Positions 298 to 4,760 of a stretch of DNA of 5,690 nucleotides are shown here, piece after piece. This DNA comes from a virus: positions 1-5,690 of the IMG/VR virus record IMGVR_UViG_3300045988_010267. One strand, given 5' to 3'. The position numbers and the translations under genes are program-made. The notes under the pieces were generated by a model. That model was not told the origin of the DNA and searched no databases. It worked only from the letters and a program-made list of their open reading frames with translations. Each line of letters begins with the position of its first letter. The first letter of the stretch is position 1.

Positions 298-346
298 TAT
301 ATTATTATTTTTATTATTAACTTGTTGTAGTCGTAGTAGTAGGGAG
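298..346. other. AT-rich tract (possible DNA-unwinding element) with a short TAG/TAGT repeat
   Basis: The sequence ATTATATTATTATTTTTATTATTAACTTGTTGTAGTCGTAGTAGTAG lies between the CG-rich repeat and the iteron array and has no coding potential. Confidence 0.5.
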
Positions 347-521
347 TGTTGAAATGTTGAATACTATGAATTTTTATCCTTGGAACGATATTTTTTGGCT
401 AATTTTAATGTTGATACTTTTGTGGATAACTTGTTGAAATGTTGAAAGTGTAGCAATATGCACAAAAACCTTTGTGCAACATTTTGTGGAAAACCTGTTG
501 AAAGTGTTGAAAGTGTTGAAA
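347..521 (+). repeat. Iteron array of eight same-orientation copies of TGTTGAAA, six of them exact
   Basis: Exact TGTTGAAA lies at 347-354, 432-439, 440-447, 496-503, 505-512 and 514-521. Variants are TGTTGAAT (355-362) and TGTTGATA (409-416). A longer composite unit, TTTTGTGGAWAACYTGTTGAAA(G)TGTTGAAAGTG, occurs twice (418-450 and 482-515). Confidence 0.9.
459..478. promoter_or_regulatory. Hairpin centred between the two composite iteron units; candidate origin stem-loop
   Basis: TGCACAAA (459-466) and TTTGTGCA (471-478) form a perfect 8-bp inverted repeat with the 4-nt loop AACC. Confidence 0.6.
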
Positions 522-563
522 AAGCAAATAAAGGCCGTCCGGCGAGCGAAACCGGAAAGTCAC

Positions 564-605: not shown

Positions 606-659
606 AAAATAAAAAGTTTCAAAAAACCTCTTGACAAATAGACAATTATATGGTATAAT
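606..659 (+). promoter_or_regulatory. Consensus sigma70/sigmaA-type promoter with an extended -10 and an A-rich UP-like element
   Basis: The -35 is TTGACA (631-636). A 17-nt spacer follows, then TGg + TATAAT (651-659). Upstream lies AAAATAAAAAGTTTCAAAAAACC (606-628). The promoter is followed by AGGAGG and an ATG. Confidence 0.85.
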
Positions 660-934: not shown

Positions 935-1042
935 CTGACTCTCAAGGAAATTAACGCGCTGTTCAACAACATCCGCAAAATCTTAGCCATGTTGGATAAG
1001 ATTTACCACGCAGTAGAGGGCAACAACAAGCCCGAGGAGTAG
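935..1042 (+). CDS. Possible 35-aa ORF with a non-canonical CTG start
   Basis: AGGAGGTAT (921-929) duplicates the RBS context of the 59-aa gene, but the only start-like codon at proper spacing (8 nt) is CTG 935. The frame reads (M/L)TLKEINALFNNIRKILAMLDKIYHAVEGNNKPEE, with TAG at 1040-1042, 5 nt before the next gene's GTG. The only in-frame ATG (989) would give 17 aa. Confidence 0.3.
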   Translation: MTLKEINALFNNIRKILAMLDKIYHAVEGNNKPEE

Positions 1043-1284: not shown

Positions 1285-1372
1285 AGACGCAAAAATCTAC
1301 AACAAGACCGCAAAGAAAACCAAGGCTATCAACTTGGGAAGCGGCGCAATGCGAGGGGGCATCCGGCTGTGA
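1253..1372 (+). CDS. Small, highly basic DNA-binding/packaging protein (phiX174 J-like, gokushovirus ORF8-like), 39 aa
   Basis: AGGAG at 1240-1244 lies 8 nt before ATG 1253. The translation is MAKRTKVRKSKDAKIYNKTAKKTKAINLGSGAMRGGIRL, with 13 K/R and 1 acidic residue. The MRGGIRL-type C-terminus is as I recall for microvirus J/ORF8-like proteins. TGA lies at 1370-1372. It overlaps the 3' end of the 78-aa ORF by 32 nt. Confidence 0.7.
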   Translation: MAKRTKVRKSKDAKIYNKTAKKTKAINLGSGAMRGGIRL

Positions 1373-1497
1373 ACATCGTCATATGGGCAGGAGTCATCGC
1401 AAGTCTCATCGCAATATGCAGCGCAAGTTTCGCGCTCATCGCAATGGGCATCGACATAGTCAAAAACTGGAGCAAAAACTGGAGGAACGAGGAATGA
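1369..1497 (+). CDS. 42-aa single-pass membrane protein (candidate lysis or membrane-active protein), not in the ORF track
   Basis: GTG 1369 overlaps the upstream stop as GTGA. GAGGGGG (1353-1359) lies 9 nt upstream. The translation is (M)NIVIWAGVIASLIAICSASFALIAMGIDIVKNWSKNWRNEE, a hydrophobic stretch of about 27 residues plus a charged tail. Its stop TGA (1495-1497) overlaps the VP5-like ATG (1494-1496) as ATGA. Confidence 0.55.
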   Translation: MNIVIWAGVIASLIAICSASFALIAMGIDIVKNWSKNWRNEE

Positions 1498-1736: not shown

Positions 1737-2208
1737 TTTCCGCGAGACGGCGGAGGCATGGCCAACTGAGGCCGGCGAAAGCGTAAGACGCACATACCTT
1801 TGGGAACTCAACGAAAAAGGTGAAAAAGTGCTGAAACTCGACCAAATCATCGACCAGCAAGCCGAAATCGACTCCTACCTAGAAGAAACCAAAATAGAAA
1901 ACATCATCCGACGGGCAAGCATCGACCCGAACATCGCGGCACGAATCGCACCGGACATCGGCGGCGGAATCCAAGATTATACCGAAATGCCGAAAACGCT
2001 AGCCGAGCTCCAAAACATCATAATTCGAGCGGAACAGATTTGGGGCGAGGTGCCAAGAGAAATCAAGCTCAAATTTGACAACGATGTCGATAAATTTATT
2101 GCATCATTTGGCACAGTCGAATGGGCTAAAAATCTGGGCATCTACAAAGAAGAACAGGCCGACGGCAAAGTGACCGAAGCAACAGAAGTAACGGAGACCA
2201 AACAGTGA
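1714..2208 (+). CDS. VP3: Internal scaffolding protein VP3 (164 aa)
   Basis: AAGGAG at 1698-1703 lies 10 nt upstream of ATG 1714. The segment DYTEMPKTLAELQNIIIRAEQIWGEVPREIKLKFDNDVDKFIASF matches the conserved VP3 core (DY..MP.tl.ea.n....A...F..lP..iR..F.NDp..F). It has an acidic C-terminus, sits immediately upstream of VP1, and its stop overlaps the VP1 GTG (GTGA). Confidence 0.8.
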   Translation: MAFRSVSNFRETAEAWPTEAGESVRRTYLWELNEKGEKVLKLDQIIDQQAEIDSYLEETKIENIIRRASIDPNIAARIAPDIGGGIQDYTEMPKTLAELQNIIIRAEQIWGEVPREIKLKFDNDVDKFIASFGTVEWAKNLGIYKEEQADGKVTEATEVTETKQ

Positions 2209-3872
2209 ACAGAAACAAAGACGCAGGATTTAACCAAGTCCCAAGGCTGGACATCACAAGAAGCCGCTTTAAAAGACGACAAAACGTCAAGTTAACACTT
2301 AACGCAGGAAAGCTTATCCCATTTTACGTTGATGAGGTGTTACCGGGTGACACCTTCTCAATCGACCAAGCAGCGATCATCCGCATGACAACGCCCATCT
2401 TTCCGGTTATGGACAACTGCTACATGGACATCTATTATTTTTTCACTCCTAACCGAATTCTGTGGAAAAATTGGAAGCGATTTATGGGCGAGAACGACAC
2501 CGGACCGTGGGCACAAACACAAGAATATACAATTCCACAAATCAAGATCTATAAAGACAGCCGCAATGCTGTGCCGCTGGAAGGAAGCCTCATGGACTAC
2601 ATGGGGATACCGACAAAAGTATGCAAGGACGAAAATACAGAATTCGAAGTAAACGCACTGCCATTCAGGGCATACACAATGATATGGCAAGAGTGGTTCA
2701 GAGATCAAAACGTAGACAACCCGGCGATCAACTCTGTAGATGATGCAACAGTAAGCTACGCAGACGTCAACGACGATTCAAAAGTAGAAGACATGCTTAA
2801 AGAAGCATATCGAGGCGGCAGACCGTTGCCTGTTAACAAATTCCACGACTACTTCACCAGCGCATTGCCGAGTCCGCAGAAAGCGGGAGAACCGGTAACA
2901 ATTCCACTGGCTGGAAAAGTGCCGGTATATGGATATGAGTACAACAGCGACAAAAAGGTACCGGAAAAGTTAAGTTTAATCACAAGAAACGGGCAAAACT
3001 CAACCATCGAAAACGGTGAAGATACGCCGCTGCAGATAAATGCCTACGAAATAGACGCTGATGGCCAATACTACTACAAAAGCATGGACTTGTACACAGA
3101 CATGAGCAAAGTAAGCAGTACAACCATCAACCAGCTCCGCCAGGCATTCCAAGTTCAAAAGTACTACGAACAACTCGCACGCGGCGGAAGCAGATACCGA
3201 GAGATGATTTATTCGCTGTTTCATACAAAAATCAGCGATAAAACAGTGCAAATCCCGGAGTATCTTGGTGGTACGCGTATCACCATCAACATGAGCCAGG
3301 TCATCCAGACCAGCGGAACAACTCCTGAGAGCCCGCAGGGTAACACCGCAGCCGTGAGCGTTACGCCGTACAATGGGAGCATGTTTACGAAGAGCTTCGA
3401 GGAACACGGCTATGTAATCGGCGTATGCTGCATCCGGCATGATCATACTTACCAGCAGGGCCTCGAACGGATGTGGAGTCGTAAAACCAATCTGGATTTT
3501 TACTACCCTGTCTTTGCAAACCTGGGAGAGCAAGCAATCCTCAAAAAGGAAATCTATCTGACTGGTACGGAAACCGACAATCAGGCATTCGGCTATCAGG
3601 AAGCATGGGCAGAATACCGAATGAAACCAAACCGAATCTGTGGCAAATTCCGTAGCAACGCAACAGGAACGCTGGATAGTTGGCACTACGGCGACAACTA
3701 CAAAGCAGTGCCAAGCCTAAGTCAGGCATGGATGAAAGAAGGAGACACCGAAATTCAGAGAACCCTCGCGGTGGACAACGAACCACAATTTATCATGGAT
3801 ACTGTCATCGATAACACAAGCGTAAGACCCATGCCTATGTACAGCATTCCGGGTCTCGTAGATCACCACTAA
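2205..3872 (+). CDS. VP1: Major capsid protein VP1 (F-protein family), 555 aa
   Basis: Hallmark Microviridae capsid motifs are present: RSRFKR...N.GKLIPFYVDEVLPGDTF, FFTPNRILW.NW..F, TINQLRQAFQVQKYYEQLARGGSRY.E and PEYLGG. Its size and position are typical of Gokushovirinae. It has a GTG start with GGAG 8 nt upstream. Confidence 0.97.
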   Translation: MNRNKDAGFNQVPRLDITRSRFKRRQNVKLTLNAGKLIPFYVDEVLPGDTFSIDQAAIIRMTTPIFPVMDNCYMDIYYFFTPNRILWKNWKRFMGENDTGPWAQTQEYTIPQIKIYKDSRNAVPLEGSLMDYMGIPTKVCKDENTEFEVNALPFRAYTMIWQEWFRDQNVDNPAINSVDDATVSYADVNDDSKVEDMLKEAYRGGRPLPVNKFHDYFTSALPSPQKAGEPVTIPLAGKVPVYGYEYNSDKKVPEKLSLITRNGQNSTIENGEDTPLQINAYEIDADGQYYYKSMDLYTDMSKVSSTTINQLRQAFQVQKYYEQLARGGSRYREMIYSLFHTKISDKTVQIPEYLGGTRITINMSQVIQTSGTTPESPQGNTAAVSVTPYNGSMFTKSFEEHGYVIGVCCIRHDHTYQQGLERMWSRKTNLDFYYPVFANLGEQAILKKEIYLTGTETDNQAFGYQEAWAEYRMKPNRICGKFRSNATGTLDSWHYGDNYKAVPSLSQAWMKEGDTEIQRTLAVDNEPQFIMDTVIDNTSVRPMPMYSIPGLVDHH

Positions 3873-3917: not shown

Positions 3918-4760
3918 ATGTTTGCAGGAATTGGAAAGATATTACTAGGAATCGGAAAACAACTACTGCCGTCAATAGCAGGCTGGGGTTTAAATAAACT
4001 GCTTGGAGGCAGCCTAAGCGAAAGCATCGGAGGTAGCCAACAGCACAACCAAAGCACAAGCGCAGGCGGCGGCACAAGCACCAGTGAAAGCGGCGTAAAC
4101 AGAGAGCAAAATCTACAGGACTGGAATAGTATGCTTGGAGCAATCCAAGCAAATATGCAAAGTCAGCAAAAGTTTAACCGAAAAAGCGTGTTCGAGCAAA
4201 TGGGATATAACACCATGTCGGCGATCATGCAAGGAGTGTATAACCAGATAAGCAACAACGCGGCGATGAACTACAACAGCGCAGAGGCCGCAAAAAACAG
4301 AGCTTGGCAAGAGCAAATGAGTAACACAGCCTATCAAAGAGCCGTAGCCGACATGAGAAAAGCAGGAATCAATCCTATTTTAGCATACCAGCAAGGCGGA
4401 GCAAGTACACCGGGTGGAGCACAAGGCACTATTAGCGGAGCAAGTATGGGACTTGCAAGCAGTAGCGCAGCAAGCGCGAGTGCTCTAGGTGTAAGCCAAA
4501 ACCATAACAACACATGGAGCAAAAGCGAAAGCAACTGGTACAACGCGGCGCAAGCGGTCGGAGACGCGACAAGTTGGCAACACACAAGCGCAGACAAAGC
4601 GTTTAACGAATTCAAGAACGTCTTTAATAGCCTCAGCAGTCTAAATACTGGCACAGGCGGGGCGGGAAGAAAACCGACCAAAGACGAACTCGAATACAAA
4701 CCGGGAAGAGATTTCATAGGAAGCAAAAACGTCGAATTTTGGAAAGGAAAACTTAAATAA
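3918..4760 (+). CDS. VP2: DNA pilot / minor capsid protein VP2 (280 aa)
   Basis: The conserved VP2 core [24 protein letters not shown] is present. It also has a hydrophobic/amphipathic N-terminus and low-complexity regions rich in G, S, Q and N. Its position directly after VP1 is typical. Confidence 0.9.

Follow-up and report, generated by a model that had tools for sequence, protein, structure and literature searches.

Gokushoviruses rank with the most abundant ssDNA phages of guts and oceans. The literature identifies no E-like lysis gene in them, in line with the remark of an earlier note on the DNA studied here that dedicated lysis genes are generally not annotated in this group, and the E. 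coli gokushovirus EC6098 lyses its host with only six core genes. The single-gene lysis protein of the Bullavirinae is protein E of phiX174, which inhibits MraY with the host protein SlyD. E requires P21, and to our knowledge it is universal in its subfamily. LysM, or Sgl-M, of the ssRNA phage M is 37 aa long and blocks the lipid II flippase MurJ. LysM and the transmembrane domain (TMD) of E show that a single transmembrane (TM) helix of the size considered below can be a complete lysis effector. Candidates for single-gene lysis (Sgl) have been defined as ORFs of at least 25 codons with a Shine–Dalgarno sequence (SD) and a TMD (Chamakura et al. 2020). Among such SD- and TMD-bearing candidates from ssRNA phages, 178/293 were without a phenotype and 33/293 were active in E. 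coli (Chamakura et al. 2020). Some gokushoviruses carry M15_3 peptidase genes, which are regarded as putative endolysins (Roux et al. 2012).

The window, by which we mean the whole 5,690-nt stretch analysed, comprises one complete circular gokushovirus genome (5595 nt) and a terminal redundancy of 95 nt. All of its recognisable genes are on the + strand. The genes and translation signals are as follows.

684–863, + strand: 59-aa ORF
1048–1284, + strand: 78-aa ORF
1253–1372, + strand: 39-aa basic J/VP8-like gene, MAKRTKVRKSKDAKIYNKTAKKTKAINLGSGAMRGGIRL (PHROG 10695, E=2.6e-9, full length)
1353–1359, + strand: SD GAGGGGG, 9 nt before GTG 1369; GAGGAGG in many relatives
1369–1497, + strand: TM mini-gene with a GTG start, 42 codons plus TGA, MNIVIWAGVIASLIAICSASFALIAMGIDIVKNWSKNWRNEE, overlapping both neighbours
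1481–1486, + strand: VP5 SD GGAGGA, in the last codons of the mini-gene, 7 nt before ATG 1494
1494–1736, + strand: VP5 (Phage_ORF5), 80 aa, start ATG 1494 (Pfam PF20577, E=8e-18; PHROG 1670, E=5e-23)
1714–2208, + strand: VP3 scaffold
2205–3872, + strand: VP1 capsid
3918–4760, + strand: VP2 pilot
from 4761 across the origin, + strand: VP4/Rep

Relatives were gathered from IMG/VR through VP5 (51) and through the J-like protein (8 more), with 3 more from GenBank. Most come from one dataset (3300045988). Their VP4 proteins are 85–96% identical to that of the window and their VP1 proteins about 76–90%, and counts are given per 63 clade-1 genomes. The J/VP8-like protein is found in all relatives at 85–97% identity. 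The VP2 gene (window 3918–4760, +; relatives L055–L105) exists as two deeply divergent alleles, with about 85–93% versus 45–55% identity to the window, and these are distributed independently of VP4, VP1 and the presence of the mini-gene. Such shuffling among genomes indicates frequent modular recombination in this population. A search for the host through the capsid protein found no relative in 185,579 species genomes.

The mini-gene is a stand-alone ORF between the J-like gene and VP5 and has 4 nt in common with each. Its GTG (1369–1371) overlaps the TGA of the J/VP8-like gene (1370–1372) in the string GTGA, and its TGA (1495–1497) overlaps the ATG of VP5 (1494–1496) in the string ATGA. Its SD sits within the last codons of the J/VP8-like gene (MRGGIRL). 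The earlier note had pointed to both overlaps and to the GAGGGGG SD, and all three are where it placed them; the GTGA and ATGA overlaps also support its proposal that the gene is translationally coupled on both sides. Two subtypes occur among the relatives, type A of about 38 aa (MNIIIWAGVIAS.IA.CSASFALIAMGIDIIKNWREKK) and type B of 32 aa (MSAVFASMTMAFLAAGFYLVINAINIIKDWFK). Equivalents of the VP5 SD are TGGAGG or TGGGAGG in type A relatives and TAAGGAG, after the stop, in type B. Over the interval 150–1800, the only matches to a promoter consensus are upstream, at 631–668, and none adjoins the mini-gene, so it is probably co-transcribed with its neighbours.

An ORF caller reads this stretch differently, as a His/Arg-rich N-terminal extension of VP5 beginning at ATG 1383. 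Within that 117-aa ORF, however, the Pfam Phage_ORF5 profile begins at residue 42 and PHROG 1670 at residue 38, which places the start of VP5 at 1494 and leaves the His/Arg stretch outside it. GenBank relatives have VP5 annotated from the equivalent ATG. ATG 1383 is missing from many relatives, its frame contains stops in 13/35 of them, and no AG-rich SD precedes it, as had been noticed from the letters. We therefore rejected the extension, which is an ORF-calling artefact, and agree with the earlier note that 1383 is not the true VP5 start.

The choice of frame was examined in 35 distinct related inserts lying between J and VP5. All but one of these (34/35) keep the TM frame open, as against 2/35 for the J frame and 22/35 for the VP5 (His/Arg) frame, which is far beyond chance. 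The start always overlaps the J TGA and is always a valid initiator (GTG in 33, ATG in 1 and TTG in 1). The inserts of the 37/63 genomes that have one range from 79 to 121 nt between J stop and VP5. The length differences that are in frame are +12 in the window, −30 in one relative, +3 in another and 18 nt between the subtypes; the single out-of-frame indel is a +1 frameshift in L039/L090. The Nei–Gojobori (NG86) dN/dS of the TM frame is 0.37 in each subtype, versus 0.77–1.67 in the shifted frames. This is much looser than in the neighbours (0.06 for the J/VP8-like gene, 0.06–0.07 across J and VP5). The peptide is constrained, but loosely, as expected of a TM helix. Gene callers have given an equivalent 32–38 aa product on about 40 independent contigs. 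On comparative grounds, then, 1369–1497 is almost certainly a real protein-coding gene. The earlier note had proposed that conservation among relatives should decide between the frames, and the 1369 frame is the one that they keep. Two other frames were considered and rejected. Read-through of the J frame meets stops in 33/35 inserts. An antisense ORF of 173 aa at 1329–1850 (−), opposite the mini-gene and VP5, is not consistently maintained: measured across relatives, the longest stretch open on that strand runs to anything from 64 to 176 codons (median 143), and every recognised gene is on the + strand.

The following features were assigned within the mini-gene.

1372–1461, + strand: predicted TM helix, residues ~2–31, from hydropathy, composition and a predicted single helix
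1450–1470, + strand: membrane-boundary motif I-D-I-[IV]-K-x-W, conserved across both subtypes
1462–1485, + strand: 12-nt in-frame tandem duplication, AAAAACTGGAGC then AAAAACTGGAGG (KNWS then KNWR), in the window only; relatives have a single copy

The product is very likely a membrane peptide, judging from these predictions. Kyte–Doolittle means over 19 residues are 1.9–2.3 across residues 1–31, and AlphaFold2, given a 38-sequence alignment, returns one continuous helix over residues 3–41 with a mean pLDDT of 87, which bears out the clean single-TM peptide first seen in the raw translation. The first charged residue is D29. The helix is 39% Gly/Ala/Ser, with A7, A11, A15 and A19 at four-residue intervals. 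I30, K32 and W34 are invariant in the 38 family members of both subtypes, and A15, A19, F21, L23, I28 and D29 are nearly invariant in the family alignment. Lys and Arg, 2–5 residues in all, are confined to the C-terminus, where a charged tail (KNWSKNWRNEE in the window, KNWREKK in relatives) gives the peptide a holin-like shape. The net charge of the tail is only 0 to +2, so that it argues weakly for an N-out/C-in topology. The 12-nt duplication accounts for the 42 aa of the window versus 38 aa in relatives.

A word-indexed profile search over 5.8e9 proteins recovered 38 members of the family and nothing outside it; all are of 32–45 aa, and a few are labelled "hypothetical protein [Microviridae sp.]". 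An exhaustive HMMER search over 1.84e9 cluster representatives gave five family clusters and one spurious match of 2829 aa. The family contigs are about 1–5.8 kb, no larger than a microvirus genome, except for one of 12 kb. That contig (L129, ENA ERZ1305919 NODE_2963, 11,966 nt) consists of a 5.39-kb microvirus genome repeated head to tail, an assembly artefact rather than a larger element. Another contig (L130, ENA ERZ19243459 NODE_27452) has a tandem duplication of about 134 nt at the junction, within 340–600. The TM gene before it and the VP5 gene after it are both intact, and at an ATCACAA microhomology VP5 codons 1–18 run into the last 27 residues of the TM peptide, which yields a 45-aa chimera (P0007). 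At a coverage of 3.7x, this may be a true rearrangement of the junction or else a chimera made by amplification. Searches of Pfam, PHROGs, NCBIfam, PADLOC and PDB found no significant homologue of the family, and among the PHROGs no lysis family was matched. The best Pfam-A match at E<=0.1 is YnaM-like, with E=0.019, below the cut-off. A search for an internal donor of the insert elsewhere in the genome gave only chance matches of 10 nt or less. The mini-gene is unannotated in GenBank relatives such as KT264788. By these searches it is an orphan family limited to this clade, whose gokushoviruses come from human, pig and monkey guts, and a new orphan among the small single-TM proteins of minimal phages.

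The mini-gene is present in 37/63 clade-1 genomes and precisely absent, junction to junction, in the other 26/63. In the relatives that lack it, VP5 itself begins at the xTG of xTGA and is served by the SD that otherwise precedes the mini-gene (GTGAGCACC..., GTGAACACC..., ATGATTAAC...), with GTGAAyACC in place of GTGA...ATGA. Two TGAA(C/T)A repeats flank the mini-gene, and a deletion between them would leave just such a clean absence. On neighbour-joining trees, there are at least nine changes of presence or absence on VP4 and at least seven on VP5 plus VP3. Type B makes up one clade, genomes with type A are mixed in among TM-less ones, and in both trees sister genomes include mini-gene-less ones. 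The presence of the mini-gene is not correlated with the VP2 allele or with h59. Since many close relatives lack it so cleanly, it is dispensable, and we consider it very probable from this distribution that it is an accessory gene. The check proposed in the earlier note, for conservation of a small hydrophobic ORF at the J-like/VP5 junction, therefore comes out divided, with the ORF there in more than half of the genomes and gone from the rest. In the TM-less genomes, no substitute TM ORF was found in any + frame with hydropathy of at least 1.9 or at least 1.5. These viruses must lyse or exit otherwise, and with about 40% of close relatives lacking it, the mini-gene cannot be the essential lysis gene of the virus. 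A recurrent hydrophobic "ORF" at about 366–437 (MNFYPWNDIFWLILMLILLWITC) was considered and rejected. It lies in a T-rich non-coding region and is broken or was not recovered in about 16 relatives; conservation at the DNA level together with a broken ORF indicates a cis element, not a gene.

The same slot has been used elsewhere. In a second clade, recognised by a VP5 beginning MIHNIYSVRDN..., there is an unannotated 33-aa TM mini-ORF that we call type C, VIEMASAITVICCGVAIIMMAVRMMMDKNKEDK (L106 1287–1388; MG945382.1 2290–2391). It starts at a GTG that overlaps the J TGA and stops 1 nt short of the VP5 ATG, and similarity to types A and B is not detectable. In the sisters of MG945382, J is coupled directly to VP5. 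In L123, the J/VP5 slot holds a 55-nt spacer without an ORF, possibly a remnant. In eleven more distant J-bearing gokushoviruses, VP4 and the J-like gene are separated by a gene for a 132-aa Peptidase_M15_3 (Pfam E=1.6e-23; L107 652–1050, also in L117–L126). Co-occurrence was tabulated in 74 complete genomes, which hold 10 of the 11 peptidase carriers. The TM-positive genomes include 0 with the peptidase and 36 without, and the TM-negative genomes 10 with and 28 without. Stated the other way, a TM mini-gene is in 0/10 peptidase-positive and 36/64 peptidase-negative genomes (naive Fisher p=0.001). This mutual exclusivity is suggestive and rests on few independent evolutionary events. We also looked at the h76/h78 gene and the peptidase as alternatives in one slot and rejected the idea, because 9 genomes have both.

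Set beside protein E, the mini-gene product has several likenesses. It is a small microvirus protein without an enzymatic domain, its active part would be a single N-terminal TM helix, probably N-out/C-in, and it would be expressed from the morphogenesis gene block. It differs from E in having no sequence similarity to it in a Pfam scan and no proline in any of the 38 family members. It is also only 32–42 aa versus 91 aa, with almost no cytoplasmic domain, and it is intercalated and stand-alone, unlike E, which is overprinted inside the external scaffolding gene D. Finally, it is missing from about 40% of close relatives. The analogy to E drawn in the earlier note thus extends to the single TM helix, but neither to the sequence of E nor to its essential proline. 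With LysM and the levivirus Sgls, the peptide has in common its size class, its single TM helix, its short charged tail, and the lack of homologues beyond a narrow clade and of a detectable donor sequence. That lack is compatible with a de novo origin in a tiny genome. It differs in that a PDB profile search and the exhaustive HMMER search found no sequence similarity to these proteins, in belonging to a DNA virus, in not being embedded in another gene and in being dispensable among relatives; its lytic action is only a candidate one.

A third comparison is to class-III or pinholin-type holins. The peptide is likewise small and hydrophobic with a charged C-terminal tail, and its Gly/Ala/Ser spacing suits helix–helix packing. 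It is shorter than any holin known to us. It also differs in having no endolysin partner: no ORF of the window has a muralytic domain, and the M15 peptidase is found in 0/36 TM-bearing genomes. To the M15_3 peptidase itself, the mini-gene is alike in being accessory, in occurring in the same gut gokushovirus group and the same VP4-to-VP5 segment, and possibly in serving host exit. The difference is between a 132-aa soluble peptidase and a TM peptide, and none of the 74 genomes has both.

We tentatively favour, at a probability of about 0.35, a non-essential factor that promotes lysis, as a single-gene-lysis or pinholin-like peptide. The ORF has the three features by which Sgl candidates are defined (Chamakura et al. 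2020), namely its 42 codons, an SD and one TM helix. It was this, the size and shape of LysM and of the TMD of E, and its occurrence, after probably two origins, only in peptidase-less lineages of a group without a known lysis gene that committed us to the lysis reading. Ribosomes ending at the J TGA would restart at the overlapping GTG, aided by the SD within J, and the same ribosomes could continue to VP5 through the overlap of the mini-gene stop with the VP5 ATG. By the positive-inside rule, the helix would span the host cytoplasmic membrane with its N-terminus on the outer side and its tail on the inner side. The peptide might work within the membrane itself, with its small-residue face mediating self-association or with a host membrane protein as its binding partner. 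It would then speed or trigger envelope failure where the M15 peptidase is absent, beside the core lysis route. Several things count against this reading. Repeated loss is unlike an essential lysis gene; a phage's lysis gene is expected to be retained or replaced, and here 26/63 genomes are without the mini-gene and without a substitute TM ORF. The family lacks proline and resembles neither E nor LysM nor any entry of Pfam, PHROGs, NCBIfam, PADLOC or PDB. Also weighing against it are the lysis by EC6098 with six core genes, the inactivity of most SD- and TMD-bearing candidates from ssRNA phages, the small number of independent events behind the peptidase pattern, the low net charge of the tail and a dN/dS far above that of the neighbouring genes. 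The dispensability of the mini-gene lowers the prior that it answers the question of how gokushoviruses lyse their hosts. The earlier note had proposed a plausible lysis effector, or possibly a holin-like or superinfection-exclusion protein. The coupled TM gene is real, but it is neither a conserved nor a dedicated lysis gene; it may still act as a lysis helper, in a holin-like way or in superinfection exclusion. More doubtful is a stronger form of the lysis reading, in which the Gokushovirinae would have in this mini-gene their first single-gene lysis "protein antibiotic". This would be a TM helix of ~35 aa, arisen de novo at the J/VP5 junction at least two times (types A/B; type C), specifically in M15-less lineages, and killing via an envelope-biogenesis enzyme or by membrane collapse.

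Superinfection exclusion and another membrane role are close rivals of the lysis reading. In the first, which we hold to be fairly unlikely, the inner-membrane peptide would block genome delivery of relatives, for example via the VP2 pilot conduit, and would be under frequency-dependent selection. The mini-gene has the traits of this class in being accessory, patchy and by prediction membrane-located. A gene dispensable for the basic cycle, with at least seven to nine gains and losses in a recombining swarm mostly from dataset 3300045988, and with the divergent types A, B and C in one slot, would fit such competition, and superinfection immunity has been reported in the literature for a gokushovirus. 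However, the mini-gene does not correlate with the two VP2 alleles, its dN/dS of 0.37 is that of purifying and not diversifying selection, and it has no homology to any defence or exclusion model. The superinfection exclusion (Sie) proteins known to us are also larger.

In the second, the helix would modulate a host transporter, sensor, respiratory or defence component and so improve yield, working like the small membrane proteins of bacteria. Such a role would call for a product like this one, nearly all TM helix, in which the spacing of small residues is conserved and the K-x-W boundary invariant. The weak, sub-threshold resemblance to YnaM (Pfam E=0.019) and the accessory, lineage-specific character of the gene point the same way, but there is no significant homology to any known small-protein family, and we think this role distinctly unlikely.

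If instead the ORF were a translational relay or spacer, it would tune the flow of ribosomes to VP5 after J, and the peptide would be incidental. The arrangement of the signals speaks for this. Types A, B and C all have a start coupled to the J stop; in type A the stop codon shares bases with the VP5 ATG, and in types C and B it comes 1–12 nt ahead of that ATG. The VP5 SD is within the 3′ end of the mini-gene, and in TM-less relatives VP5 uses the exact same GTG/ATG and SD. A relay needs no particular residues, yet hydrophobicity, I30/K32/W34 and a dN/dS of 0.37 are kept in both subtypes, and the unrelated third insert also encodes a TM helix. We consider it improbable. That the frame is fortuitous in non-functional DNA left by a junction duplication or insertion, or that the 1383 extension of VP5 is genuine, is very improbable; the VP5 frame is open in 22/35 inserts, junction duplications do occur (L130) and L039/L090 are frameshifted, but the 1383 frame is interrupted or lacks its ATG in many relatives, VP5 profiles start at 1494, the TM frame has coding-type constraint and in-frame indels with one exception, and no donor sequence is found elsewhere in the genome.

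The mini-gene offers a concrete handle on how gokushoviruses lyse their hosts, with three peptide types (A, B and C; 32–42 aa) and natural isogenic-like genomes with and without the gene. Should the peptides prove lytic, they would add new minimal protein antibiotics and offer a clear example of a gene born de novo at a junction between genes. Otherwise, the presence/absence polymorphism still points to a hotspot at which accessory membrane genes are tried out by tiny phages. In either case, the annotation of the clade is corrected, with VP5 taken from 1494, the His/Arg extension dropped as spurious and the mini-gene, which most public records omit, included.

Several other elements were seen in the window. 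At 631–659 (+), a promoter that matches the sigma-70 consensus perfectly (TTGACA-17-TATAAT, extended −10 TG) precedes the 59-aa ORF at 684–863, which is followed by a terminator-like hairpin and T-run at 875–888. This ORF is in only about 15/52 relatives, and 631–888 behaves as a moron-like, self-contained accessory cassette. The type of promoter and the strong SDs argue for a non-Bacteroidota host. A conserved 35-aa ORF, LTLKEINALFNNIRKILAMLDKIYHAVEGNNKPEE, occupies 935–1042 (+). Its aligned start is CTG in 60/61 relatives, with an SD (AGGAGG at 921–926, or AAGAGG) 8–9 nt upstream. An in-frame TGA three codons upstream in many relatives leaves it without a canonical start; the homologue in clade 2 starts with ATG. 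It looks like a conserved case of non-canonical CTG initiation missed by ORF callers. The non-coding region 336–470 has 90–100% DNA identity in 55/60 relatives, above that of the synonymous sites of genes. About 8–9 copies of (T)GTTGAAA and 20–22-nt direct repeats extend across about 347–521, and these repeats (window 336–525, +) are probably origin or regulatory iterons. Directly after the VP4 stop, there is a 17-bp inverted repeat (197–213 / 222–238, +), and two exact 13-nt direct repeats, CGCACGCGCACGT, are found at 263–275 and 281–293 inside a GC-rich block.
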